Shown here: positions 3 to 18,672 of the stretch, piece by piece
How the letters are laid out: each line of letters begins with the position of its first letter
Numbering within the stretch: position 1 is the first letter of the stretch
Origin: an uncultured Gemmatimonadales bacterium
GTDB lineage: Bacteria; Gemmatimonadota; Gemmatimonadetes; Longimicrobiales; RSA9
Reading direction: 5' to 3'
NCBI GenBank assembly: GCA_963798845.1
Contig: CAWCUS010000002.1
Span: forward strand, 96,001-160,000
Length of the DNA stretch: 64,000 bases
Notes under the pieces: generated by a model
Database searches by the model: none
The model's input: the letters and a program-made list of their open reading frames with translations, nothing else
What the model was told of the DNA's origin: nothing
Program-made: the position numbers and the translations under genes

Positions 3-860
3 TGGTCTGACGTGGTGCTGCCGGAGTCTACGTACCTCGAGCGGGACGACGACCTGAACTCGGTCTGGTACCGGCAGGGCTTCGTGGCGCTCCGGCAGGC
101 GGCGGTGAGCCCGATGTACGATACGCGCCCCGGGTGGTGGATCGCCAGGGAGCTCGCCCGTCGTCTGAACCTGGCGGAGCACTTCCAGTGGGACGACGCG
201 CGCTCGTACGTGGACGCGCGGCTGAAGGCGGCGGGCGTGGACGTGGCGCAGGCCCGGCGCGACGGCGTCGTCATGGGCGAGCGCCAGCCGATCTACTACG
301 AGGAAGGGGCGCCGCCGGTGTTCTACACGGGCTCGGGGAAGATCGAGCTCTGGTCGCCGCAGCTGGCGTCGCTCGGCTTCGATCCGATCCCGACCTGGAA
401 GGACGGAGAGCTGGAGGAACCGCCGGCGGGCTATTACCGGCTCCTCTTCGGACGGGCGCCGACCATGACGTTCGGGCGGACCACGAACAACCGGCTCCTG
501 GCCGAGACGTTCCCGGAGAACGCCGTCTGGGTGAACAGCAAGGTGGCGCGGAAGTGGGGGCTGAAGAACGGGGAGCGCGTCTACCTGAAGAACCAGGACG
601 GGGTCCAGTCCACGTTCTCGGCGCCGGTGAAGGTGACGGAGCGGATCCGTCCCGACGCGGTCTACGTCGTCCACGGCTGGGGCCGCAAGGCGAAGGGGCT
701 GGAGTTCGCCCACGGCCGTGGGATCGACGACGCGGAGCTGGTGACGCGCTACAGGACCGACCCGCTGATGGGCGGGACGGGGATGAACGTGAACTTCGTG
801 ACGTTCGTCCGGGCCCCGGATGTGGCGGCGGCCGGGGGTGCGGAGGAGGTGGCTGAATGA
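3..860 (+). CDS. Molybdopterin oxidoreductase catalytic subunit (PsrA/PhsA-like), C-terminal part, truncated by window edge
   Basis: DVVLPESTYLER motif and C-terminal molybdopterin-binding domain (VWVN..A...GLKNGERV, VTERIRPD.VYVVHGWG); followed by 4Fe-4S and NrfD genes. Confidence 0.9.
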   Translation, partial: WSDVVLPESTYLERDDDLNSVWYRQGFVALRQAAVSPMYDTRPGWWIARELARRLNLAEHFQWDDARSYVDARLKAAGVDVAQARRDGVVMGERQPIYYEEGAPPVFYTGSGKIELWSPQLASLGFDPIPTWKDGELEEPPAGYYRLLFGRAPTMTFGRTTNNRLLAETFPENAVWVNSKVARKWGLKNGERVYLKNQDGVQSTFSAPVKVTERIRPDAVYVVHGWGRKAKGLEFAHGRGIDDAELVTRYRTDPLMGGTGMNVNFVTFVRAPDVAAAGGAEEVAE

Positions 861-1408
861 TCGGAAAGCGCTACGGCATGGCGCTCGACACGCGCACCTG
901 CGTGGGGTGCACGGCGTGCGTGGTGGCGTGCAAGACCGAAAACGACGTCGCGGAAGGGTTCTCCCGCGACTGGGTGACCACGGAGCTCACCGGTGAGTTC
1001 CCGTCGCTCTCCATGGAGATCCGGAGCGAGCGGTGCAACCACTGCGAGTCCGCGCCGTGCGTGGCCGCATGCCCGACGGGCGCTTCGTATTACGGCCCCG
1101 GCGGAACGGTACAGGTCGATGCGGACAGGTGCACGGGCTGCAAGGCGTGCATCGCGGCGTGCCCGTATGGCGCCCGCTTCGTGGACCCGCGCACCCGCAC
1201 CGTGGACAAGTGCACGTTGTGCGCGCACCGGGGCGCCGATGGCGGCGAATGGACCACCGCATGCCAGGACACGTGCCCGACCCGGAGCATCCATTTTGGC
1301 GACCTGAACGACCCCACGAGCGAGATCTCGCGACTGCTCGCCACGCGCAAGTGGCGCGTGCTCCTGCCGGAGGCGGGGACCAGGCCGAAGGTTTTCTACC
1401 TGGAGTAG
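857..1408 (+). CDS. 4Fe-4S dicluster electron-transfer subunit (PsrB/NrfC-like)
   Basis: Four Cys clusters (CVGCTACVVAC, CNHCESAPCVAACP, CTGCKACIAACP, CTLC...CQDTCP); ATGA overlap with upstream gene. Confidence 0.95.
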   Translation: MIGKRYGMALDTRTCVGCTACVVACKTENDVAEGFSRDWVTTELTGEFPSLSMEIRSERCNHCESAPCVAACPTGASYYGPGGTVQVDADRCTGCKACIAACPYGARFVDPRTRTVDKCTLCAHRGADGGEWTTACQDTCPTRSIHFGDLNDPTSEISRLLATRKWRVLLPEAGTRPKVFYLE

Positions 1409-1415
1409 CGGCGAC

Positions 1416-2408
1416 ATGAACGAATACACGACCACGCGCGCGAATGCGATGGTGGATCCCGGGCTCCACGTCTGGCACTACCAGGTGCCCGTGTACCTCT
1501 TCCTCGGCGGGTTGGTGGCCGGGGTGATGGTGCTGTCGGGCGTGTGGATGCTGCGCTCGCCCGGGCGGGAGCGCTCCCGTGCGCTTTCGCTCCTCCCGTG
1601 GGCGGCGCCGGTCCTGCTTTCCGCCGGCATGCTGTTCCTCTGGCTCGACCTGGAGAATCGCTGGAACGCCTTCCGGTTCTATCTCGCGTTCCGTCCCTCG
1701 TCGCCAATGTCGTGGGGGGCGTGGATCCTTCTGGCGATCTACCCCGCGAGCATCCTCCTGGCGCTGCGCATGACGCCCGTGGAGCTGCGCGCGTGTCCGC
1801 TTTCGAAGCTGGCGAAGCGGTTCGGGGCCTCGTCGCTCGGAAAGGGGCTCGAGACCGGTTTCACCCGGGCCACGTTCTGGGTGGACGACCACACGCGCGG
1901 TATCGCGCTCTGGAACGTGACGCTGGGTGGCGCCCTCGGGATCTACACCGGAATCCTGCTCGGCTCCCTGGGCGCCCGGCCGCTCTGGAGCTCCGCGATC
2001 CTCGGTCCGCTGTTCCTGGTCTCCGGGCTGTCCACGGGGGCGGCGTTCATGATGCTCACGGGCCTGCGCGACGATGAGCGGACGCTACTGGGGAAGACCG
2101 ACATGGGGCTGATCGTTGTGGAGCTGGCGCTCCTGGCCCTGCTCCTGATCGGCCTGACCACGGGTGGAGGAGCGTCGCGCGAAGCGGCGGGCGTGCTGCT
2201 CGGCGGCCCCTATACCGCCGCGTTCTGGACCATGGTCGTGGCGCTGGGGCTGCTTGCGCCGCTCTCGGCCGAGTGGCTGGAGGCGAAGCATGGGGTGGTG
2301 TCCGGTCGCATGGCGGCGGTGCTGGTGCTGACAGGCGGGCTGGCGCTCCGCTGGGTGCTCGTGGCCGCGGGCCAGCACACCACGTGGCTCATGGCCGCGC
2401 TCAGGTAG
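1416..2408 (+). CDS. nrfD: NrfD/PsrC family membrane anchor
   Basis: W..QVPVYLFLGGL, LWLDL, SPMSWGAWIL, YTGILL..RPLW motifs; multiple TM helices. Confidence 0.92.
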   Translation: MNEYTTTRANAMVDPGLHVWHYQVPVYLFLGGLVAGVMVLSGVWMLRSPGRERSRALSLLPWAAPVLLSAGMLFLWLDLENRWNAFRFYLAFRPSSPMSWGAWILLAIYPASILLALRMTPVELRACPLSKLAKRFGASSLGKGLETGFTRATFWVDDHTRGIALWNVTLGGALGIYTGILLGSLGARPLWSSAILGPLFLVSGLSTGAAFMMLTGLRDDERTLLGKTDMGLIVVELALLALLLIGLTTGGGASREAAGVLLGGPYTAAFWTMVVALGLLAPLSAEWLEAKHGVVSGRMAAVLVLTGGLALRWVLVAAGQHTTWLMAALR

Positions 2409-2424: not shown

Positions 2425-2934
2425 ATGGAAGCGAAGAAATACTGGAACCCGTACGCCGCCGGTGTCCTTCTGGGGTTGACGCTCCTGGCCGCGTTCCTGG
2501 TCAGCGGGGGCGGTCTGGGGGCGAGCGCCATGCCGAAGCGGCTCATCGCGCTCGGCGCCATGAAGGCGGCACCCGCGTGGACCGCGGCCAATCCGGCACT
2601 GGGAAGCTACGTGGAGGCAGGGAACCCGCTCCGCAACTGGCTGGTGGTGGAAGTGATCGGTGTGCTGTTGGGCGGCTTCATCGCCGCGGTGTCGGCCGGA
2701 CGGTTCCGCGCCACCGTGGAGAAGGGCCCGCGCATCTCCACGGGCGGGCGCCTGCTCTACGCCGCCACGGGTGGCGTGATCATGGGCTTCGCCGCGGCGC
2801 TGGCCCGCGGCTGCACGTCGGGACAGGCGCTGTCGGGCGGCGCGCTGCTGGCCACCGGGAGCTGGATCTTCATGCTGATGGTATTCGCGGGCGGCTACGC
2901 CGCCGCGTGGTTCGTGAGGAGGCAGTGGACATGA
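2425..2934 (+). CDS. YeeE/YedE sulfur-compound transporter
   Basis: YWNPYAAGVLLG N-terminus, LARGCTSG motif; AAGGAG RBS before ATG 2425. Confidence 0.88.
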   Translation: MEAKKYWNPYAAGVLLGLTLLAAFLVSGGGLGASAMPKRLIALGAMKAAPAWTAANPALGSYVEAGNPLRNWLVVEVIGVLLGGFIAAVSAGRFRATVEKGPRISTGGRLLYAATGGVIMGFAAALARGCTSGQALSGGALLATGSWIFMLMVFAGGYAAAWFVRRQWT

Positions 2935-4112
2935 GCGTGTTTCCGCTGGTCTTCGCCAACGACGAGGTGCGACTCCTCACCGGCCTCGTCATCGGGTTCT
3001 TCTTCGGCTTCGCGCTGGAGCGCGGCGGTTTCGGCAACGCGCGCAAGCTCGCCGGCCAGTTCTACCTGCACGACATGACCGTGTTCAAGGTCATGTTCAC
3101 GGCCATCCTGGTGGCCATGGTCGGACTTTACACGCTGGTCGGCCTCGGCTGGGTGGACATGGCCCGGCTCTGGGTCAATCCCACCTTCCTGTGGTCGGAG
3201 CTGGTGGGCGGGTTCCTGCTCGGCGTCGGCTTCATCATGAGCGGCCTCTGCCCCGGCACTTCCGTGGTCTCGGCCGCTTCGGGACGCTGGGACGGGCTGG
3301 CCGCCATCGGCGGTATCTTCGTCGGTACCTTCTTCTTCACGCTGGCCGTGGACTGGTTCCCGGCGCTGAATACGCTGTATCACGCGGGCAGCCTGGGCGT
3401 GTCCGTTCTCCCCACCCTTTTCGGCCTCCCGACGCTGCCGTTCGTGCTCGGCGTGGTCGTGCTGGCCGGGATGGCGTTCGTCGGCGCGGAGATGGTGGAG
3501 CGCGCGTTCCGGACCCGGCACGCCGAGGTCGAGCTGACGCCGTCGCCGATCCCGTTCGCGAAGTTCGGGCTGGCCGGCGCGCTGGCGCTGGTGCTCTTCG
3601 TCGGTCTCGGGCTCCGGCCCGGTCCCACGACCATGCCGGTGCGCGCGGTGGCGCAGGACCCGGTCGCAGCCATCGACCTTGCCCGGCGCGTGATCGCGGG
3701 GGACCCGGACCTGATGATCCTGGACCTGCGAGGCGATGCCGAGGATCGCATTCCGGGATCGTATCCCGCGGCAGCGGACGAGTCCGCGGCGCCGATCCTG
3801 GCGGCGGCGGGCGAGAACACCGACGTGGTGCTGGTCACCGAGGACGGCGCCCTGGACGCGGTGCCCGCTTCGTGGCCCGCGCGCCCTCGCTACCGCATGC
3901 TGCGGGGTGGCTGGGCGGCCTGGGATTCGGACGTGCTGACGCCCGCACAGCCGAACGGCACGGGCGCCGAGGAGATGGACCGCGTGCGCGAGCAGAACGG
4001 CATCTCGGCGTTCTTCTCGGGCGCCGGCACGCTCGCTCCGCAGCTGGCCGCGCCGCCGCCGGTACTGCCGCAGGGCGGGAGCGCGGCGAAGCCGAAGCGG
4101 GGCGGCTGCTGA
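2931..4112 (+). CDS. YeeE/YedE transporter fused to a rhodanese-like domain with C-terminal GGC tail
   Basis: FGFALERGGF, GLCPGTS motifs; then ILDLR...IPGS...MLRGGWAAW rhodanese-like fold; ends KPKRGGC; ATGA overlap. Confidence 0.85.
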   Translation: MSVFPLVFANDEVRLLTGLVIGFFFGFALERGGFGNARKLAGQFYLHDMTVFKVMFTAILVAMVGLYTLVGLGWVDMARLWVNPTFLWSELVGGFLLGVGFIMSGLCPGTSVVSAASGRWDGLAAIGGIFVGTFFFTLAVDWFPALNTLYHAGSLGVSVLPTLFGLPTLPFVLGVVVLAGMAFVGAEMVERAFRTRHAEVELTPSPIPFAKFGLAGALALVLFVGLGLRPGPTTMPVRAVAQDPVAAIDLARRVIAGDPDLMILDLRGDAEDRIPGSYPAAADESAAPILAAAGENTDVVLVTEDGALDAVPASWPARPRYRMLRGGWAAWDSDVLTPAQPNGTGAEEMDRVREQNGISAFFSGAGTLAPQLAAPPPVLPQGGSAAKPKRGGC

Positions 4113-4116
4113 ACGG

Positions 4117-4659
4117 TCAAACCTTGCCGAGCACCGCCCGCTCCACCACGTCGCCGACCTTCGTCGCCAGCGCCGGGTCGTCCGCGAAGAAGACGGGGAA
4201 AGGAGCGCGCGCGGCGTAGTCCGGGTCGTCCGTGATCCCGGCGATGAGCTCGGACGCGCCCGCTCCCGCGGGATCGAAGACGGGATGCTCGTGCGCGGCG
4301 CGGCGGAAGATCTCGATCTTCGGCAGGCTCTCGCCTTTGAAGCCTTCCACCACGACCACGTCGGCATCGGACAGGTAGCGCGACGCGAGCTCGGCCGCTC
4401 CCATCTCTCGCCCGGCCGGCCACGTGCCCACCACGGAGAACTGACCGGGACCCGCCAGCACCACCCGCTCCGCGCCGCCTTCCAGGCGATGGCGGTAGGA
4501 GTCGGTGTCCGGACGGTCCAGGTCGAAGTGGTGCCCGTGCTTGATGGTCATCGCGCGGTACCCGCGGGCCCGGAGCTCCCTCAGCAGGAAGAGCACCGTC
4601 GTCGTCTTGCCGGACTTCTTCTTTCCCACCACGCAGACCATCGGCGGCGTGCTCGACAT
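4117..4659 (-). CDS. mobB: Molybdopterin-guanine dinucleotide biosynthesis protein B
   Basis: GKKKSGKTT P-loop, IKHGHHFDLD, DSYRH, DVVVVEGFK. Confidence 0.92.
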   Translation of the reverse strand: MSSTPPMVCVVGKKKSGKTTTVLFLLRELRARGYRAMTIKHGHHFDLDRPDTDSYRHRLEGGAERVVLAGPGQFSVVGTWPAGREMGAAELASRYLSDADVVVVEGFKGESLPKIEIFRRAAHEHPVFDPAGAGASELIAGITDDPDYAARAPFPVFFADDPALATKVGDVVERAVLGKV

Positions 4660-4731
4660 GGCGGCAAAGATGCGGTCGCGGCCGGACCGTCGCCACTGGA
4701 CGTCCCGTCAGAGCGCACCCGGGCGCGGGCT

Positions 4732-5445
4732 TCAGGCGCCGCCGGTGGATCGCGCGAGCCGCAGGCTGCGAGCGCGCGCCGCCACGGCGGTGCCGCCGAT
4801 GTAGAGACCGAAGCCGCCCGCGAAGGCGGTGGCGACCCGTAGCAGTCGCGGCAGCAGCGGGGCCGCCCGGGTAATGTCGCTCGTTCCGCGGGTGAGCATG
4901 AGTGCCCGGGCCTCGCCCAGCGCCAGGTGGAGCACCACCAGAAGGGCCATGAAGACGACGAATGGGAGCACGGCCGGGAGCCGCAAGCGCGCCACGGCCT
5001 CCACCATGGGAATGAACGGCAGAACCAGCGCTGCCCAGAACAGCCAGCTCCCGAGCTCGCGGAATACCGTCGCGAGCCCGCCCGCCCCGGCGAGCACCAT
5101 GACGAGGAGCGCGAAGACGGTATAGATCACCCCGGTCGCCACCAGGGCGAGGGAGCCGGCCACGGCATGCTCGACAGGGGAGACCAGGTTGTGGCGCAGG
5201 AACGTCACGAGCCCCGTCTCTCTCTGTTCCTCGAGACCGGAGCGAAGAGCGAAGAGGAGTCCGACGAAATAGCCGTATCCGGCCAGGTCGGAATCCGCGT
5301 GCCAGCCCGATCCCGCCCTCCACGGCAGGAAGGCGGCCAGCATGATGATCGCGCCGGCCCCGGTGAAGCCGGCCCGCGTGAGCCACATCCGGAGGTTGGT
5401 CCGGAGCGCGAAGGCTGCCAGCGCCAATGTCGTGCGTGCGGTCAC
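4732..5445 (-). CDS. Putative ABC transporter permease (multi-TM membrane protein)
   Basis: About 6 hydrophobic segments; GTGA overlap with upstream ABC ATPase. Confidence 0.7.
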   Translation of the reverse strand: MTARTTLALAAFALRTNLRMWLTRAGFTGAGAIIMLAAFLPWRAGSGWHADSDLAGYGYFVGLLFALRSGLEEQRETGLVTFLRHNLVSPVEHAVAGSLALVATGVIYTVFALLVMVLAGAGGLATVFRELGSWLFWAALVLPFIPMVEAVARLRLPAVLPFVVFMALLVVLHLALGEARALMLTRGTSDITRAAPLLPRLLRVATAFAGGFGLYIGGTAVAARARSLRLARSTGGA

Positions 5446-6122
5446 GATCCGCCTCCCGCGTTGCCCTCGACCCGAGGTGCCGTATCGGGGACGGCCACAC
5501 CCACCGCACCGCCGAGCCGCCCCGCCACTCCGGCCTCGAGGTGGATCCCGCCATCCCGGAGCGCCCGTTCGGTGGACTGGTTCGTGGCCACGATCACGAC
5601 GTGGTGCCGTGCCCGCGCCTCCAGCGCACGGGTGAGCTCCCCCTTCGCATCGGGGGACAGATGCTCGTACGGCTCATCCAGCAGGAGCGGACCCTCCAGG
5701 CGGAGGAGCGCGTCCAGGACGAGCCGTTTCCGCTCCCCTGTGGACAGGCGGCCAACCCGCCGGCCGTCCGCGACGTCAGGCCAGAGCGGAGTCCGCCCCG
5801 TGTGGCCGACGAGCCGGATCATCAGGGAATCCCAGTCCCCCGCCTCCGCGCTGGCCGGCAGCGTCATCTCGGACTGGAAATAGCGCCACGCCCGCGGATC
5901 GGCCGGCGCCCGGCGCACGGTTCCACCGCGCGGCCGATCGAGTCCCGCCAGGACCCGAAGCAGGCTCGTCTTCCCTGCGCCGTTGGGGCCCACCACCCAG
6001 AAGATCCTGCCCGGGCCGATGTCGAACCCCAGCCCCTCAACTACCGGGTTCGGGCCCCGGCGCACCTCCAGTCCTTCCACCGTCAGTCGCGAGTTCCGGT
6101 GCGGGCGGGAGCTTGCAGGCAT
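5442..6122 (-). CDS. ABC transporter ATP-binding protein (compact; start uncertain)
   Basis: Walker A GPNGAGKT, signature LSTGE, Walker B LLLDE; H-loop reads ATNQ. Confidence 0.85.
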   Translation of the reverse strand: MPASSRPHRNSRLTVEGLEVRRGPNPVVEGLGFDIGPGRIFWVVGPNGAGKTSLLRVLAGLDRPRGGTVRRAPADPRAWRYFQSEMTLPASAEAGDWDSLMIRLVGHTGRTPLWPDVADGRRVGRLSTGERKRLVLDALLRLEGPLLLDEPYEHLSPDAKGELTRALEARARHHVVIVATNQSTERALRDGGIHLEAGVAGRLGGAVGVAVPDTAPRVEGNAGGGS

Positions 6123-7110
6123 GGAAGCCATCCTCGTCGTCTACAAGGAGAACGGTACGTTTGCGCGGGAGATAGGCCATCGCCGTGGCGGGCACGTCGG
6201 TGATGAACCCCTGGATGAACCGGAGCTGACGATCCAGGCGGAGGAGCGCCCGCTCGGGGCGGCTCCCCGTCAGCTGGTTCGTCCGGGTCATGACGTACAC
6301 CTCGTCCGAGCGCCGATCCAGGCTCATGGCGATGGCGGGCACCAGCATCTCGAGCATCTGAGCTTCCGTGACCGGCGCCGTGGGGATGAAGTCGATCCGG
6401 TCGCGCGTCGCGTCCGGCGTCGGCAGCGCCAGCTGGCGCACGCTGCCCCCGGGGTACAGGGCGAACGCGCGTGGCTCGAGGAACTGGTGCACCACGAGGG
6501 CGGTGCCATCCGAAAGCACCTCCACGAGAGCCGTGTTGCCCAGCGCAGCGACGACCATGTCGGTGTATGCGCGCTTCGGGATGTCCACGGGAGAAAGCGT
6601 ATCTCCGCGCCACCGCTCCAGGAGCGTGGGCGGGCTGGGGCCGAAGGGCATCGCAGTGACGAGGAAGCTGCCGTCGCCCGTCTCGGCGAGCGATGCGGGG
6701 GCGAAATCGAGGGGCGTGCTCCGAAGCTCCCGACCATCCAGCGACAGGAGCACCAGCCGGAGGTTGCCCCGTCCGGCGATCGCCACAGCGGTGTCACCCG
6801 CAGGGACGGCGCTCACGGGCTCCTCGACCGCGCCGGGCCCCGTCTCGACGTAGCTCACCTCCCACAGCCGACGGAGCTCGTCGTCGAACAGGGCCACGGT
6901 GCGCTGGGCTTCGTCCAGCACGGTCCAGGTGGAATCGGACACGCCCCGCATCTCGGCCACCGCGTACTCCCCGTCCACGTGCACGGGGCGACAGTCCAGG
7001 CGGGCGGCCCGCTTCAGGAAGCCATCCACGATCGTATAGCCGGGCCGCCCGGCGTCATGGCACCCGGGCAGCAGCATCAGCAGCAGAATGAGAAAGGTCG
7101 ACCGGCGCAT
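6037..7110 (-). CDS. Lipoprotein, probable 6-bladed beta-propeller
   Basis: MRRSTFLILLLMLLPGC lipobox; GPGAVEEP (GPGEF-like) motif and repeated beta-blade pattern; GGAGG RBS. Confidence 0.7.
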   Translation of the reverse strand: MRRSTFLILLLMLLPGCHDAGRPGYTIVDGFLKRAARLDCRPVHVDGEYAVAEMRGVSDSTWTVLDEAQRTVALFDDELRRLWEVSYVETGPGAVEEPVSAVPAGDTAVAIAGRGNLRLVLLSLDGRELRSTPLDFAPASLAETGDGSFLVTAMPFGPSPPTLLERWRGDTLSPVDIPKRAYTDMVVAALGNTALVEVLSDGTALVVHQFLEPRAFALYPGGSVRQLALPTPDATRDRIDFIPTAPVTEAQMLEMLVPAIAMSLDRRSDEVYVMTRTNQLTGSRPERALLRLDRQLRFIQGFITDVPATAMAYLPRKRTVLLVDDEDGFHACKLPPAPELATDGGRTGGAPGPEPGS

Positions 7111-7131
7111 GAAAGGCACCTCCGTGAGTAG

Positions 7132-7326
7132 CTAGACGCTCCGCCTCAGGCACCCGACGTAGCTGGCGAAGCAGCTGATGTCGGCCATTCTCTTCAGCAT
7201 CCCTGAGTAGTAGTACGAGTCGTTCAGACACCTCACGTACTCCGTCGTGCACTCGGCGGCCACGGGCCGCGGTACGGCGGTGATCGCCCCCGCGGAGAGG
7301 GCGAGCATCAGGATGATCTTGTTCAT
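7132..7326 (-). CDS. Small secreted peptide (64 aa) with CX6C-X18-CX6C core
   Basis: AGGAGG RBS; Sec signal MNKIILMLALSAGAITAVPRPVAA; mature ECTTEYVRCLNDSYYYSGMLKRMADISCFASYVGCLRRSV. Confidence 0.8.
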   Translation of the reverse strand: MNKIILMLALSAGAITAVPRPVAAECTTEYVRCLNDSYYYSGMLKRMADISCFASYVGCLRRSV

Positions 7327-7510
7327 TGTTGCCTCCTCGGTTCGCGTTGGGCGCCGGCCGACCCTTCGCGACCGAGGGTGCTCCATGATAAGGGGCCCAT
7401 CCATAGCGGAACGGGACCCGCTCGCGCGAAGGCCAAACCTCCAGCCGCGCAGGGCCCCGGACGGCGCTCAGGTTGACGCGCCGCCCGTGCTTCCGCTAGC
7501 GTCCGACGTG

Positions 7511-9390
<1,880 letters not shown>

Positions 9391-9543: not shown

Positions 9544-10881
9544 GTGAGCGCGGTGGACGGCAACGGCACGGCGGGCGGAGCGGCCTCGCCCGCCGGCGAG
9601 GCCGGCGAGGCCGCTCGGCAATCGGCGGCATCGGCCGTCCTGCGCGGCGAAGGTCGCGGGCCGTGGTACGCGCGGCTTCTGCCGTTCCTCGGGCCCGCGT
9701 TCGTCGCCTCGGTGGCGTACGTGGATCCGGGCAACTTCGCCACCAACATCCAGGCGGGCGCCACGTTCGGCTACACGCTGCTGTGGGTCATCGTGGCGAG
9801 CAACCTGGCGGCCATGCTGATCCAGACGCTGTCGGCCAAGCTCGGCATCGCCACGGGCTGCAACCTGGCAGAGGTCTGCCGCGACCACTACCCTCGCCCA
9901 GTGGTGTGGGGGATGTGGGTGGTCTCGGAGCTCGTCGCGATCGCCACGGACCTGGCCGAGTTCCTCGGCGCGGCCGTCGGCTTCAACCTGCTCTTCGGCA
10001 TCCCGCTGCTGCCGGCGGCGTTGCTCACGGGCGTCACCACCTTCCTGATCCTTGGGCTGCAGCGCTACGGGTTCCGCCCCATCGAAGCGGTGATCACCGC
10101 CATGGTGGGTGTCATAGCCCTCTCCTATCTCGTCGAGACGCTGCTGGAATGGCCGGACTGGAGCGCGCTCTTCGCCAGCGCGGTCACGCCCCGGTTCCAG
10201 GGCACGGAGAGCGTGCTGCTGGCGGTGGGGATTCTCGGGGCGACTGTGATGCCTCACGTCATCTTCCTGCACTCCTCGCTGACGCAGAACCGCATCCGCA
10301 CCACCAGCCCGGACCAGATGCGCCGGCTGTTCCGGTTTCAGCTCGTCAATGTCACGGTGGCCATGGGGCTGGCAGGCCTCATCAACGGTGCGATGCTGGT
10401 CATGGCGGCGGCCACCTTCCACCGCGCGGGGCTGACGCAGGTGGCTTCCATCGAGGAGGCGTACCGCACCCTCACGCCGCTGCTGGGCCCGCTGGCGAGC
10501 GTGGTGTTCGCCATATCGCTCCTGGCGTCGGGACTCTCGTCTTCGACGGTGGGCACCATGGCCGGGCAGGTGATCATGCAGGGGTTCCTGCACTGGCACG
10601 TGCCGATCTGGGTGCGGCGACTGGTGACCATGGCGCCGGCCATCGTCGTCATCGCGGCGGGGCTCGACCCGACCCGGACGCTGGTGATCAGCCAGGTCGT
10701 GCTGTCGTTCGGAATCCCCTTCGCGCTGGTCCCGCTGGTGCAGTTCACCAGGAGGGCCGAGCTGATGGGTGTGCTGGTGAATCGTCGCCCGACGACCGTC
10801 GTGACCTGGGTCATTGCCGCCGCCATCATCGCGCTGAACTTCTACCTTCTGTTCCAGATCTTCACGGGAGGCGGCCCATGA
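9544..10881 (+). CDS. mntH: NRAMP family divalent metal (Mn2+) transporter
   Basis: DPGN and GATVMPH motifs, GTMAGQVIMQGF. Confidence 0.95.
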   Translation: MSAVDGNGTAGGAASPAGEAGEAARQSAASAVLRGEGRGPWYARLLPFLGPAFVASVAYVDPGNFATNIQAGATFGYTLLWVIVASNLAAMLIQTLSAKLGIATGCNLAEVCRDHYPRPVVWGMWVVSELVAIATDLAEFLGAAVGFNLLFGIPLLPAALLTGVTTFLILGLQRYGFRPIEAVITAMVGVIALSYLVETLLEWPDWSALFASAVTPRFQGTESVLLAVGILGATVMPHVIFLHSSLTQNRIRTTSPDQMRRLFRFQLVNVTVAMGLAGLINGAMLVMAAATFHRAGLTQVASIEEAYRTLTPLLGPLASVVFAISLLASGLSSSTVGTMAGQVIMQGFLHWHVPIWVRRLVTMAPAIVVIAAGLDPTRTLVISQVVLSFGIPFALVPLVQFTRRAELMGVLVNRRPTTVVTWVIAAAIIALNFYLLFQIFTGGGP

Positions 10882-11804
10882 CCGACACCGACGCCCTGGG
10901 CACCGCGCGCGTGGAGCGCATCCTGGTCCCGCTGGATGGCTCCGCGCTGGCCGAGGCCGTGCTCGTGCTCGCGGCCGAGCTGGCGACGCTGCTCGACGCG
11001 GAGCTCGCGCTGCTGCACGTGGTCGAGCGCGACGCGCCCACCCGGATCCACGGCGAGCCTCACCTGCACCGGTCCGGCGACGCGCTGCGCTATCTCGACG
11101 CCGCGGCCGAGAGCCTGCGCGGACGAGGCGCGCGCGTGGTGACCCACGTCCACGAGCCCGCCATCGGCGACGTCGCCGCGGCCATCGCGCAGCACGCCAC
11201 GGAGCTCGGCGCCGGCCTCATCCTGCTCTGCACCCACGGCTCCGGCGGGCTGCGGGACCTGCTGCTGGGGAGCATCGCGCAGCAGACGCTGCGGCTCGCG
11301 ACCACGCCGGTGCTGGTGGTGCGTCCGGGGGACCCTGCGCCGGTGCTGAGCTGCGAGCGCTGGATCGTCGCGCTGGACCCCGTCGTCCACGGCCCCGGTG
11401 CGCTGCCGCTGACGACCACGCTCGCGCGCACGTGCGGCGCACGGCTGCACCTCCTCACGGTCGTGCCCACCCGCGCGAGCCTGCCGCCCGAGCGCGGCGC
11501 TCCCGCCATCTTCTCCCCGTCCGCTACAGCCGACGTGCTCGAGATGGAGGCCGACGACGCGCGTCGCTACATGGAAACCCTGGTGGAGACGCTGCGCGCG
11601 GAGGGCATCGAGTCGATCGCCGAGGTACGGCGAGGCAGCGCCACGCACGAGACGCTGGACGTGGTCGCGCGCCAGCAGGTCGGCCTGCTGGTCATCGCCA
11701 CGCATGGCAAGGCCGGCGTGCCCGGCGTGCTCTCCGGCAGCTTCGCCGCCGCCGTGGTGCCGAGGGTCTCGGCGCCGGTGCTGCTGGTGCCGCTCCAGGA
11801 GTGA
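10878..11804 (+). CDS. Tandem universal stress protein
   Basis: RILVPLDGS, THG.GG....LLGSIA, second domain ATHG...LSGSFA; ATGA overlap with mntH. Confidence 0.9.
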   Translation: MTDTDALGTARVERILVPLDGSALAEAVLVLAAELATLLDAELALLHVVERDAPTRIHGEPHLHRSGDALRYLDAAAESLRGRGARVVTHVHEPAIGDVAAAIAQHATELGAGLILLCTHGSGGLRDLLLGSIAQQTLRLATTPVLVVRPGDPAPVLSCERWIVALDPVVHGPGALPLTTTLARTCGARLHLLTVVPTRASLPPERGAPAIFSPSATADVLEMEADDARRYMETLVETLRAEGIESIAEVRRGSATHETLDVVARQQVGLLVIATHGKAGVPGVLSGSFAAAVVPRVSAPVLLVPLQE

Positions 11805-14363: not shown

Positions 14364-17247
14364 ATGAGCCTCTCCGTTCGCCGCAAGGTTCTGGTCGTGC
14401 TCGCCGTGGTGATGGTGCTTCCGCTGGGGGTGGTGGCCGCGTCGAGGAACGCGCGGGTGGAAGTCGGCTCGCTGCGCGCGTGCGTCGGGCTGGGCAAGGC
14501 CGGCTTTCGGGCCATCGCCGAGGACCGCCGGGACCGGTTCCTCGGCAAGGTCCAGGCATACACGGCGCGCTGTCGTGGCGGGGAGCGTGGGGACGCGTAC
14601 CGCCCCACTCCGTGGGTGGACTGGACGAACTACTGGGGCACGGGCGACCGGACTTCGCTGTCGGGGCCCGGCCTGCTCGGCCACCTCGCGCGCAACGGGC
14701 GTGGCATCGACGGGGCGCTGCTGGACCTGGAGTACCAGCGCATGGAGCTCATCAAGTTCAACCTGTTCGACAACTACACGTTCGAAGAGTACGTGGACGG
14801 CCGGGGCGGCGTGCCAGGGCGGTCGTTGAAGGTGTGGCCGCAGATGCGGCTGCCAGCCGATGACGCGCACTACGCGGAGGTGGGCGGCGCGGGCGAGCAG
14901 CTTTGCGGCGGCGAGCTGATCCGCTACCGCAACGAGAGCGGCATCTGCAACGACATCCGCAACCCGCTCATGGGCTCCACGGGGACGCTGTTCGCCCGCA
15001 ACGTCCAGTTCGAGGAGACCTCCCCGGAGCTGGGCGCCACGCAGCTGGTGCGCAACCGCCACGGCGACCGGCTCGGGCTGCTGAAGCCGGACCCGCAGGT
15101 GATCAGCCGCGAGCTGTTCACCCGCCAGCAGAGCCACCCGGAGCGGTGTCGCGACGGGCTGGCCGCCGGCGCCGACGCGAGGTGCGACTACATCGAGGCT
15201 CCGTTCTTCAACGTGCTGGCGGCGTTCTGGATCCAGTTCATGACGCACGACTGGTTCGCGCACCTGGACGAGGGGCGCAACTCGCCTGAGCTGGCCCCGG
15301 TGGGGTGCAGCACGCGCCTGGAGGGCGGGGCGGAGCGGACACTGACGGCGGAGGAGATCGCCGCGCTCGGCTGCCGGCCCGGAGACCGCATGGACGCGGC
15401 GCTGATGGCAGACACCACGCCGCCGCCCACGTTCGAGCACGATGGCCGGACGCACCTGCGGCGGGCGCAGCGCACCACGCGCAACCTGAACACCGCCTGG
15501 TGGGACGCCTCGCAGCTGTACGGCTACAGCGATCGTTCCGTGCACCGGGTGAAGCGCGACCCGCGCGACCCGGCGAAGCTGCTCACGGTGCAAGTCGGTG
15601 GACGGGCGGGCGCGGGTGAGCGGCAGGGCTACCTGTCGGTTTTCGAGCCGGGCGACCCGATCCTGCCCGTCCTGGGCCGGGCAGGAAGCGGTAGCGTTTC
15701 CGGACAACTGGTCCATCGGGCTGAGCTTCTTCCACAACGTCTTCGCGCGCGAGCACAACAACTTCGTGGACGCGTTCCACAAGCGCGCGGCCGCGGATCC
15801 GGACGGTGATTCCGGACTGCGCGACCCGGCGGACCCGGAGCGCGTGATCCGTTACCGTGACGTCACGCCGGATGAGCTGTTCCAGGTGACGCGGCTGGTC
15901 GTCGCCGCGGAGATCGCGAAGATCCACACCATCGAGTGGACCACGCAGCTGCTCTACGACGAGCCGCTCTACCAGGCGATGAACGCCAACTGGCACGGGC
16001 TCGTGCGACCCGACAACGCGGTCTCTCGCGCGCTCGACCAGGTGGCAGTGGATCGGCTCGGCCGCTCGTTCAACGAGACGGACCAGACCCAGTGGTACTC
16101 CGTGTTCGCCTCCGGCGCCGGCATCACCGGGCTGGGCAGCCACCGCTACGCGGAGCGGCCCGGCTTCCTCGGCATCGTGCAGCACAGCAAGGACATCTGG
16201 GACCTGCGCAATCCCGACCACGTGAACGGCGGCACCAACCATTTCGGCTCGCCGTTCAACTTCCCGGAGGAGTTCGTCACCGTCTACCGGCTGCACCCGC
16301 TGGTGCCCGACCTGCTGGAGTACCGTGACCTGGAGCAGCCGAATCGCATCGAGCGGCGCGTGCCGGTGGCCTCCATGGTGCGCGCCAGCGCCACGCCGGC
16401 CATGCGCGAGGGAGGGCTGACCAGCTGGGCGCTCACCATGGGGCGGCAGCGGTTGGGCGCGCTGACGCTGAACAACCACCCGCTGTTCCTGCAGAACCTG
16501 CCCATGCCGCGTCTGAGCAGCGAGACCGGGAAGCTCGACATCCCCGCGCTGGACATCATCCGCGACCGCGAGCGAGGCGTGCCTCGCTTCAACGAGTTCC
16601 GCCGCCAGTATGGTCTGAAGACGCTGACCGGCTACGACGACTTCGTCGACCGGCACCTGAGCGCCGACTCCCCGGAACGGCAACGCCAGGTCGAGCTGGT
16701 GGACAGGCTGCGCCAGGTCTACGGGCAGCACCGCTGCGACGATTCGAAGGTGATCAGCGACGTGCAGCTCGTCGACGGCGAGCCCGTCACCGACTGCCTC
16801 GGGCATCCGGACGGGACCGTGGTGGACAACGTCGAGGACCTGGACGTGGTCGTGGGGTTCCTGGCGGAGTCCACGCGGCCGCACGGATTCGCCATCTCCG
16901 AGACGCAGTTCACCGTCTTCATCATCAACGCGTCCCGGCGCCTGTTCAGCGACCGCTTCTTCACCTCCAGCTTCCGGCCCGAGTTCTATACGAGCCTGGG
17001 GATCGAGTGGGTCGAGAACAACGGGCCCGACGGCAAGGTCTACGAAGCGGGGCGTCCCAACGGCCACCGGGACGAGGTCTCGCCGCTCAAGCGCGTGCTG
17101 CTGCGGGCCATGCCCGAGCTCTCCGGCGAGCTTTCGCACGTCGTGAACGCCTTCGATCCCTGGGCCCGGGACCGCGGCGCCTACTACACCCTCGACTGGA
17201 AGCCACGTTCGGGCGCCGAGTCCGATCCGGCGTTCCAGGGACCCTGA
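14364..17247 (+). CDS. Animal-type heme peroxidase / fatty-acid alpha-dioxygenase-like protein, split by a +1 frameshift near 15666-15668
   Basis: FWIQFMTHDWF, TAWWDASQLYG, FAREHN, EIAKIHTIEWT, VYRLHPLVPD, RDRERGVPRFNEFRR, SRRLFSDRFFT; removing one C joins GDPILP to SWAGQEAVAFPDNW. Confidence 0.85.
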
Positions 17248-17630: not shown

Positions 17631-17770
17631 ACAGTGGTCGCCAACCGGTCTCAATTCCCGGCGATCGACCACCCGATCACGGCCGGAGCGGCCGGGTGGT
17701 CGCCGACCGGTGATGGAAGCCGGTTTCCGCACGATCGACCGCGGGAGAGGCTTGAGTGGTCGACCTCCGG
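17631..17770. repeat. 140-bp direct repeat, copy A (internal GTGGTCG/CGACCAC inverted motifs)
   Basis: Gapless match to 18991-19130, about 110/140 identical by manual count. Confidence 0.9.
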
Positions 17771-18672
17771 ACCTCGGCCCGCGTGAGCACGGCCGTGAGC
17801 CGCCGTACCAGGGGGAGCGGCTCCTCGCGGATCTGGCGCCAGGTGACGCGGTGCACCTCGATGCCGCGCGCAGCGAGGTCGAGCCCGCGGCCGCGGTCGC
17901 GCTCGAAGGGATGGCGCAGGTGGTGGTACGCGTAGCCGTCCACCTCCACTGCCACACCGAGGTTCCGCCAGAAGAAGTCCGCCTCGTGGCCGAAGATCAC
18001 GACGTTGCACTCCGGCTCGGGAAGGCCGGCCTCCCGTAGCAGCGCGAGGAGGCCGTCCTCCGCCGGCGATCGAGTGAAAGCCGGGCCGGGCCCGGCGAGG
18101 ATGGCCCGCAGCAGCGGGGTGCCAGGCCGGCCCCTCTCCCGCTCGAGGCGGTCCCGTAGGGCCTCCGTGTCCAGCCGACCCAGGCGCTCCGCGCGTGCAA
18201 TGATCTGCTCGAGCTCGCGGGGCCTCGCGTCGGCGGCGGTGTCGAGAATCGAGCGGATCGGCGTCGTCGTACGGATCCGCTCGACGATTTCGACGTCCCC
18301 GCCGGGAATCGAGGCGACCCGGTGCGCCAGCACCCCGGGCTGCCGACACCGGCCCCGGGCCAGCAGCACGTGCACCGGCCCGGGCGGCTGGCAGGGCACA
18401 AGCTCCAGCAGCCAGAGAGCGCTGCGGCGGGCGACGACCGCCCCGCGTCCGCAGGCCAGCATCGCTGCCATTTCCCGGTGCCGGACCGGCAGCAGCGGTC
18501 CCCTGAGCGTTCCGAGCAGGTAGACGCCCCGGTGAAGGCTGAGAAGCCGCCCGGCGCGTACGCGTGACCGGATCGCGTCGGCGGTGAGGCCCGCCTGGAT
18601 CAGCTGCGCGCGCGTCACCACCCCGTGCTGACGGGCCCCCGTCTCGGCGATCATGGCCTCGATGGACTTCAC
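17677..18672 (-). CDS. AbiEi-like antitoxin N-terminal domain plus DUF559 (Vsr-like PD-(D/E)xK) endonuclease-domain protein
   Basis: RQHGVVTRAQL..AG, LHRGVY, TTPIRSILD, TRSPAE, PECNV, EADFFW, VAVEVDG...H, FERDR. Confidence 0.88.
   Translation of the reverse strand: MKSIEAMIAETGARQHGVVTRAQLIQAGLTADAIRSRVRAGRLLSLHRGVYLLGTLRGPLLPVRHREMAAMLACGRGAVVARRSALWLLELVPCQPPGPVHVLLARGRCRQPGVLAHRVASIPGGDVEIVERIRTTTPIRSILDTAADARPRELEQIIARAERLGRLDTEALRDRLERERGRPGTPLLRAILAGPGPAFTRSPAEDGLLALLREAGLPEPECNVVIFGHEADFFWRNLGVAVEVDGYAYHHLRHPFERDRGRGLDLAARGIEVHRVTWRQIREEPLPLVRRLTAVLTRAEVRRSTTQASPAVDRAETGFHHRSATTRPLRP

Follow-up and report, generated by a model that had tools for sequence, protein, structure and literature searches.

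The arrangement of a small secreted peptide together with a lipoprotein and an ATP-binding cassette (ABC) pump of the ABC-2 type is known. In the cited part of PMC5786555, LanI is described as a membrane lipoprotein that binds a lantibiotic, NisF as a protein of 225 amino acids (aa), and NisE and NisG as having six helices each; there, and in the cited part of PMC4828448, LanFEG appears as a small ATPase with six-helix permeases by which the peptide is expelled. Downstream of the lactococcin 972 gene, as far as the cited part of PMC4055356 describes it, lie two genes that encode a putative ABC transporter for immunity, and in the cited part of PMC11564875 the shape most often predicted for streptococcal class IId bacteriocins is a disulfide-stabilised α-hairpin. 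Here we describe a locus with this general arrangement from a 64,000-nucleotide (nt) stretch of contig CAWCUS010000002.1 of an uncultured Gemmatimonadales bacterium, the whole of which is referred to below as the window. The locus encodes a small exported precursor with two C-x6-C cysteine pairs, a β-propeller lipoprotein, an ABC ATPase and a permease. The peptide family to which the precursor belongs is, as judged from sequence comparison, real, unnamed and previously undescribed, and the propeller family is likewise undescribed. The peptide, the propeller and the ABC pair very probably form one functional unit; a peptide with a self-protection module, by analogy with LanI/LanFEG or lactococcin 972, is the possible, still doubtful, role that we favour for it.

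The initial annotation of the locus, made from the sequence alone, had described four tightly packed and co-oriented genes. These are borne out, with the peptide, lipoprotein, ABC ATPase and permease genes all lying on the minus strand within 4732..7326, and a fifth gene follows. The features of the locus are:

7327..7400, minus strand: conserved upstream region/5' leader, kept in the window and in the related loci L001, L002 and L003 (43 nt available in the last)
7132-7326, minus strand: precursor gene, 64 aa (Shine-Dalgarno sequence, codon GC, homologues)
7255..7326, minus strand: predicted signal peptide, residues 1-24, ending V-A-A (sequence and hydropathy)
7132..7254, minus strand: mature 40-aa twin C-x6-C miniprotein and stop codon (sequence, family alignment, AlphaFold2)
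6037..7110, minus strand: lipoprotein, 357 aa, predicted NHL-like six-bladed β-propeller (18-sequence alignment, AlphaFold2, Foldseek)
5442..6131, minus strand: ABC ATPase, about 204-229 aa, the start being at 6131 or about 6080 (Pfam ABC_tran)
4732..5445, minus strand: permease, 237 aa, six hydrophobic segments, probably of ABC-2 type (hydropathy, with look-alikes as a lead)
4117..4659, minus strand: MobB-family P-loop protein, fifth gene of the block (Pfam MobB, E 1e-30)

The overlapping junctions that had been proposed hold in part. The lipoprotein and ATPase genes overlap, the ATPase gene running into the non-conserved tail of the lipoprotein, and the ATPase stop and permease start share a 4-nt GTGA overlap, which is identical in L001 and L002; by contrast, a 21-nt gap separates the peptide and lipoprotein genes. 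The gap between the permease gene and mobB is 72 nt in the window, about 8 nt in L001 and 12 nt in L002. Pfam and NCBIfam scans of the block proteins reveal no recognisable modifying enzyme, as had also been claimed, although the propeller itself could still be an enzyme. A consensus promoter and terminator scan of 4000-7700 gave 0 sites.

The peptide gene is preceded by a GAGGAGG Shine-Dalgarno sequence, which ends 6 nt ahead of its ATG, and the encoded N terminus begins with basic residues, continues into a hydrophobic core and carries a V-A-A cleavage motif before residue 25, as judged by eye and from hydropathy. The strong ribosome-binding site and Sec-type signal peptide claimed at the outset are supported by these features and by the near-invariance of the alanine at position -1 of the cleavage site across the 78 family sequences considered below. 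The mature 40 aa are exactly C-x6-C-x18-C-x6-C, with the cysteines at residues 26, 33, 52 and 59 of the precursor; the internal repeat (C-T-T-E-Y-V-R-C-L and C-F-A-S-Y-V-G-C-L) and the Y-Y-Y loop, both noticed earlier, are confirmed in this part. The GC of the peptide gene at codon positions 1/2/3 is 0.46/0.48/0.94, and because this codon-position signature stands in a window of 71% GC, the open reading frame (ORF) is regarded as a coding sequence; position-3 GC is 0.85-0.87 in three orthologous peptide genes. A start at 7404, giving a 90-aa ORF, was rejected, the homologues backing the 64-aa start. Assignment of the peptide as a lipoprotein was likewise rejected, the residues ahead of the first cysteine (E/D at -1 in the window clade) being unfit for a lipobox.

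A word-indexed search for the peptide found two relatives only (3/3 candidates, one of them the query itself). A profile built from these and from three peptides of related loci (alignment A3) was then searched against 1.84 billion representative proteins and gave 80 matches at E <= 0.001, 24 of them at E <= 1e-10, with a best E of 9e-29. Conservation of the cysteine spacing, on which the initial annotation had made its proposal depend, was found throughout: the twin C-x6-C, behind a signal-like N terminus, is kept in all 76 matches shorter than 130 aa (76/76). The family comprises at least 76 clusters at 50% identity. Four long profile matches (P0065, P0075, P0089, P0093), repeat proteins matching over short stretches, were judged spurious and dropped.

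The set used for analysis of conservation comprises 78 sequences (6 + 72); the N-terminally extended ORF calls P0027, P0041, P0076 and P0079, in which the motif is present, were left out of the alignment (A4). The four cysteines are invariant in 78/78 aligned members and the tyrosine at +4 of the first cysteine (Y30) is nearly so, the frequent columns being C-T-x-x-Y-x-x-C-[LI]-N-[DE] and A-D-x-E-C-x-A-x-[YW]-x-G-C-[VLI]. The connector between the cysteine pairs has 18 residues in 47/78 members, 19 in 16/78 and 13-21 in the others, row P0099 being mis-parsed by the pattern used for this count. The window peptide has all the family-defining features, i.e. signal, C-x6-C, a connector of 13-21 residues, C-x6-C and the core motifs. 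A KLKFW-like C-terminal tail is present in 16/78 members (e.g. P0047, P0048, P0057, P0066), none of them in the window clade; such a conserved aromatic C terminus may be a recognition tag for another partner.

The peptide had not been recognised when the locus was first annotated, and the family is indeed absent from Pfam, where no consistent family was found among the 78 members (two single matches at chance level), and from NCBIfam, where 0/78 match any family. No fused forms were found in an exhaustive profile search of unlimited length, and tblastn of the propeller, the window peptide and the KLKFW-type member P0047 against 72,556 plasmids gave no match. Literature searches, including for the CX6C motif, found no description of a twin C-x6-C family, and no relevant paper on bacterial periplasmic hairpins stabilised by cysteines or on propeller lipoproteins with an ABC-2 pump and a small secreted protein. 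As a lead only, the Atlas look-alikes are unnamed clusters of 68-73-aa proteins attributed to Acidobacteriota and Aminicenantota, at 0.87-0.89.

The helical hairpin that had been proposed from the cysteine pattern is also what AlphaFold2 predicts from the 78-row alignment, with a mean predicted local distance difference test score (pLDDT) of 87, rising to 96-98 over residues 30-60; the predicted helices span residues 22-36 and 42-63, with a five-residue loop between them. From the antiparallel register of this model it can be inferred that C26 would pair with C59 and C33 with C52. Because 26 + 59 = 33 + 52 = 85, and such a sum is constant in an antiparallel hairpin, two inter-helix disulfides are geometrically consistent with the model. 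In a Foldseek comparison of the model with the PDB, 0/58 of the matches listed were at E <= 0.001; the non-significant top rows include the disulfide-rich hairpins neurotoxin B-IV, Mdm35 and luffin P1.

For the lipoprotein, the ATG at 7110 (357 aa) is backed as the start by 17 homologues and by a GGAGG site, in favour of which a GTG at 7119 was rejected. The lipobox cysteine (Cys17) is invariant in 18/18 sequences; C40 and C332 are also invariant in this alignment, which suggests, at the level of sequence, a disulfide and an oxidising location. The β-propeller named in the initial annotation is supported by a confident AlphaFold2 model of an NHL-like, six-bladed fold (pLDDT 89, predicted template modelling score 0.85) and by Foldseek matches to the NHL domains of Thin, TRIM2 and Brat (E about 4e-11, template modelling score 0.65-0.73 on the target). 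The full-length Foldseek matches are exported propellers of Bacteroides, DUF4221 (3s9j, E 4e-10) and BF0058 (4raa), and streptogramin B lyase structures are also among the fold matches, while the family profile gave a weak match to the TRIM3/TRIM2 NHL domains in the PDB (E 0.002-0.006). No match was found in Pfam (E <= 0.1) or in NCBIfam. A first search for propeller homologues found 18 proteins and a profile search 55 clusters, all of them 44-67% identical to the query and all labelled 'hypothetical'; one homologue is named from Longimicrobiales. As far as these searches cover it, the propeller family is small and tight.

Invariant polar residues of the propeller are R55, D59, D66, D106, R166, R180, D184, N192, H208, Q209, D265 and D324, and a conserved proline-rich insertion lies at about 228-260. 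When mapped by the usual propeller convention, most invariant residues would sit in loops on one face and in the insertion. These residues and the insertion could form an active site, such that the propeller would trim or modify the miniprotein or its precursor in the periplasm, the locus would yield a modified peptide and the ABC-2 pump would give tolerance. NHL-like and related six- or seven-bladed propellers do include enzymes, e.g. peptidyl-α-hydroxyglycine lyase and the streptogramin B lyase found among the fold matches. However, neither a catalytic motif nor, by sequence (Pfam, NCBIfam, PDB profile), a matching enzyme family was found, the best fold matches (TRIM, Brat, Thin) are to binding domains, conserved aspartates in blade turns are often structural, and the ends of the peptide lack the conservation expected of a processing site. 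A processing enzyme is thus considered quite unlikely.

The ATPase and permease resemble an ABC-2-type pair, in agreement with the ABC transporter first proposed. The ATPase matches Pfam ABC_tran (E 2e-13); its NCBIfam matches are all below cut-offs, the CcmA-like and ABC-F models being the best, and its PDB matches are generic (EttA, NosF, CcmA). Alignment would place its start at about 6080 rather than 6131. The Walker A motif, the LSTGE signature and the Walker B motif LLLDEP are kept in the orthologues (4-sequence alignment). The permease has six hydrophobic segments in 3/3 orthologues, and its language-model look-alikes, taken as a lead only, include clusters of ABC-2 permeases (ABC2_membrane) at 0.92-0.95; it gave no match in Pfam or NCBIfam, and 0 matches in the PDB either as a single sequence or as a 3-sequence profile. 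In PADLOC the peptide, propeller and permease match 0 defence families and the ATPase has only generic P-loop matches.

A pattern scan of 185,579 species genomes for the propeller led to 3 confirmed loci among 126 pattern matches, a number that is a lower bound. The hosts of L001-L003 are two Gemmatimonadaceae metagenome-assembled genomes and one from Longimicrobiales, and the rarity of the locus, taken with the same reservation, suggests an accessory trait. The initial annotation had also made its proposal depend on a cysteine peptide being present upstream of homologous propellers; such a peptide is present at 3/3 homologous loci, with the twin C-x6-C precursor gene directly upstream of the propeller gene, as in the window, the two genes being about 15-24 nt apart. 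In L001 and L002 the propeller gene is followed by those for the ATPase, the permease and then a MobB-family protein (Pfam E 2e-33; L001:3423-4004, L002:8278-8883), and in L003, which is on a short contig, by the start of the ATPase gene and then the contig end. The upstream flanks are thiC with a thiamine pyrophosphate (TPP) riboswitch (window), DoxX (L001) and CMD (L002), and the downstream flanks are Sulf_transp (window, L002) and RecQ (L001). Because these outer flanks differ between loci, the five-gene block is regarded as the conserved unit. The leader, precursor, propeller lipoprotein, ATPase and ABC-2-like permease constitute one conserved envelope operon, to which MobB probably also belongs. 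Pairwise identities are 50-70% for the mature peptide, 45-57% for the propeller, 60-63% for the ATPase, 35-43% for the permease and 67-72% for MobB, with L002 and L003 the closest pair for both peptide (70%) and propeller (57%).

These comparisons bear on whether the peptide gene might lie merely by chance beside an unrelated lipoprotein/ABC operon. The peptide family, with 76 clusters at 50% identity, seems much wider than that of the propeller, with 55 clusters at least 44% identical, and because of this the peptide can apparently exist without this propeller; the contrast in family size is soft, however, since both propeller searches scored only 8000 word-sharing candidates. By contrast, the same gene order with short gaps is found in 4/4 loci with differing outer flanks, and the divergence of peptide and propeller is parallel, so that chance adjacency appears very improbable.

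The favoured reading, i.e. a peptide together with the means of self-protection against it, can be set out as follows. Sec would export the precursor, cleavage would follow behind the A-x-A site, and periplasmic oxidation would yield an α-hairpin stapled by C26-C59 and C33-C52. The conserved face of the membrane-anchored propeller lipoprotein would bind the peptide, the cell's own product thereby being captured on the outer side of the cytoplasmic membrane, and the ATPase/permease dimer would act from the membrane on the same ligand, the ABC-2 pump expelling peptide that reaches the bilayer. The peptide itself would be a competition or signalling factor directed toward neighbouring cells.

Several observations that go beyond the initial annotation weigh somewhat against a classical bacteriocin, in particular charge, copy number, level of conservation, MobB and the matter of export. 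The net charge of core and tail has a median of -2 in the family (range -8 to +3), that of the window peptide being about +1. Each locus has a single peptide gene, with no further family member found in the window or in the related loci. Far from being hypervariable, the mature peptide equals or exceeds the propeller in conservation. MobB, which is co-oriented and closely linked in each of the three loci whose sequence extends that far (3/3), has no place in an immunity model. There is no outer-membrane export gene in the block, and the relatives are from Gemmatimonadota, a phylum with two membranes. To these points may be added that the propeller is without sequence relation to LanI, and the peptide without relation to lactococcin 972, and that the ATPase has T-N-Q in place of the expected T-H of the H-loop in 3/3 full sequences. 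The Q-loop also varies between Q and H, with histidine in 2/4 orthologues; as compared with the canonical motifs, the two changes suggest, from the sequence, an atypical or slow ATPase.

A different role, nearly as likely as self-protection, is that of a periplasmic partner or relay, in which a non-toxic miniprotein would be a stable subunit or a carrier (of sulfur species, metal or cofactor). It would work with the propeller on a substrate delivered by the ABC-2 exporter, in a manner like that of the NosL/NosDFY or CcmAB-type maturation systems, and would be tied through MobB to molybdenum cofactor (Moco) or sulfur metabolism. This role is kept nearly as likely because MobB is conserved and the neighbouring genes are related to sulfur and molybdenum. 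MobB is kept as the fifth gene in 3/3 loci, at gaps of 8-72 nt, despite the differing outer flanks, and sulfur/thiol neighbours recur, with a Psr-like set and Sulf_transp in the window, Sulf_transp and CMD in L002, and DoxX in L001. A mostly anionic peptide with one gene per locus and a degree of conservation equal to that of its partners would suit such a role, which, being periplasmic, requires no outer-membrane export; NosF and CcmA among the PDB matches of the ATPase, and CcmA in NCBIfam, are also consistent with it, at a generic ABC level. On the other hand, the four invariant cysteines, in hairpin register, point to structural disulfides rather than to free thiols or a metal site, known cofactor-binding motifs are absent, and the leader contains no Moco riboswitch or other Rfam family. 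The neighbour pattern comes from three loci and may be due to chance, and since synteny between the window and L002 extends further on the MobB side, only L001 is independent there.

The neighbouring genes on the MobB side of the window include a Psr/Phs-like molybdopterin oxidoreductase set (12-2408, plus strand; the Molydop_binding end of the catalytic subunit, a Fer4_11 4Fe-4S subunit and an NrfD anchor). A Sulf_transp (YeeE/YedE-like) gene with a long C-terminal extension (2931-4112, plus strand) is convergent with mobB, and the same Sulf_transp gene adjoins MobB in L002.

A wider form of this alternative would have the twin C-x6-C miniproteins as unrecognised, multi-phylum periplasmic disulfide hairpins, a counterpart of the mitochondrial twin-CX9C proteins. 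In Gemmatimonadota one of them would be the dedicated periplasmic partner of a new propeller/ABC-2/MobB machine, with its histidine-less H-loop, that relays sulfur, metal or cofactor to periplasmic molybdoenzymes and does not act in antibiosis; we regard this extended proposal as rather unlikely.

The region upstream of the precursor gene bears on regulation and on a further alternative. A leader of about 70 nt is kept in the window (7327-7400, minus strand) and in L001:782-855, L002:5679-5752 and L003:1-43, and it holds an invariant 12-nt core. A long stem in the leader pairs with part of the Shine-Dalgarno sequence, the consensus fold having 22 pairs, of which 2 show compensatory changes (three sequences), with folding z-scores of -4.3, -1.8 and -2.0. 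Promoter-like hexamers, with a TATCAT-like -10, were seen by eye within 7327..7400, where the consensus promoter scan was negative. A search of 7000-7800 with Rfam found nothing for the peptide leader and no Moco motif; apart from the thiC TPP element, it gave one sub-threshold snoRNA match. The leader may be an element that controls translation, or it may represent a new cis-regulatory RNA. The TPP riboswitch (7507-7612, plus strand) scored 66.8 bits, above the gathering score, and precedes thiC (7666-9390, plus strand); because the peptide operon and thiC are transcribed divergently, their control regions share an intergenic space of roughly 340 nt.

A separate, structured leader suggests regulated expression, as would be apt for a secreted cue with the propeller lipoprotein as its receptor, and a signal peptide would also be in keeping with the pattern seen in the family, where the scaffold is conserved while the helix surfaces and the loop vary. 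However, the block has no conserved histidine kinase, response regulator or transcription factor, a GGDEF protein being near L002 only; ABC-2-type transporters are, to our knowledge, exporters, and a signal would face the same problem of passage through the outer membrane as a bacteriocin. We therefore give this signalling role little weight.

Other features of the window lie outside the block. Directly downstream of thiC, at 9544-11804 (plus strand), are a gene for an Nramp-family metal transporter and then one for a tandem universal stress protein. Two overlapping ORFs, 14364-15809 and 15598-17247 (both plus strand), match the animal haem peroxidase profile at positions 1-172 and 303-445; a single gene may here have been divided by a frameshift or sequencing error, or the pair may reflect crude ORF calling. 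The ORF at 17677-18672 (minus strand) has an AbiEi_4 antitoxin-type N-terminal domain (E 8e-9) and may belong to a toxin-antitoxin or abortive-infection pair.

Whatever its role, a 40-residue hairpin with two predicted disulfides and no modification enzyme could be made synthetically at low cost and might be used as a stable scaffold. Should it prove antimicrobial, it would define a new class of Sec-dependent peptides in a phylum from which hardly any peptides have been characterised; a role as periplasmic partner of a propeller/ABC-2/MobB machine would instead point to an envelope process not yet known. Either way, the peptide and the propeller make a defined, testable pair, and the conserved leader offers a handle on regulation.

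With respect to known systems, small secreted NVEALA-type proteins lie beside six-bladed propeller lipoproteins in Bacteroidota loci, an analogy drawn in the initial annotation. It is a lead and is limited to the propeller fold, which is shared with DUF4221 (3s9j) and BF0058 (4raa); 0/78 peptide family members match the NVEALA Pfam family, nor does the propeller match any Pfam family. A literature search found nothing on NVEALA or DUF4221, and because of this the function of the NVEALA-type system is no guide here.

Twin-CX9C (CHCH) and twin-CX3C proteins of the mitochondrial intermembrane space, and the plant α-hairpinins (CX3C), are helix-turn-helix proteins with one C-xN-C motif per helix. 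The twin C-x6-C peptides are like these in shape only, in being compatible with two parallel inter-helix disulfides and in having an oxidising compartment, a likeness that does not imply membership. They differ in their spacing (6, not 9 or 3), in being bacterial and Sec-exported, and in lacking detectable sequence similarity or significant structural similarity. CHCH/twin-CX9C membership is also contradicted by the spacing of 6 in all members and by the lack of a Pfam match and of a significant fold match.

As with the precursors described here, lactococcin 972 uses a Sec signal. Its Pfam family is, however, matched by 0/78 members, and its cluster differs in having no lipoprotein, in being plasmid-borne, in its Gram-positive host and in the fold of the peptide. 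The class IId bacteriocins, as far as the cited part of PMC11564875 characterises them, resemble the present peptides in being small and unmodified, with two antiparallel helices held by disulfide. By contrast with the double-glycine leaders and cationic charge in that account, the twin C-x6-C family has Sec signals with A-x-A, two C-x6-C pairs and a median charge of -2, and so does not belong to class IId on the basis of leader or charge. The NosDFY-NosL and CcmAB systems, in which periplasmic centres are matured, are similar in combining an ABC-2-like exporter with a lipoprotein or periplasmic partner, and the ATPase matches NosF and CcmA generically; against this, the ATPase similarity is below all curated cut-offs and NosD, NosL, CcmC and CcmE homologues are absent.

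In comparison with LanI/LanFEG, the peptide here is not a lanthipeptide, has a Sec signal and is without a modification enzyme, there is one permease gene rather than two, MobB is attached, and the host phylum has two membranes. The β-propeller lipoprotein is without a sequence link to LanI, and neither it nor the permease falls in the LanI or LanE/G families by sequence (no Pfam or NCBIfam match). As far as the cited parts of the LanI/LanFEG accounts allow comparison, the likeness to NisI/NisFEG is one of composition, in that a peptide gene is accompanied by a lipoprotein, a small ATPase (about 204-229 aa here) and a six-segment permease.

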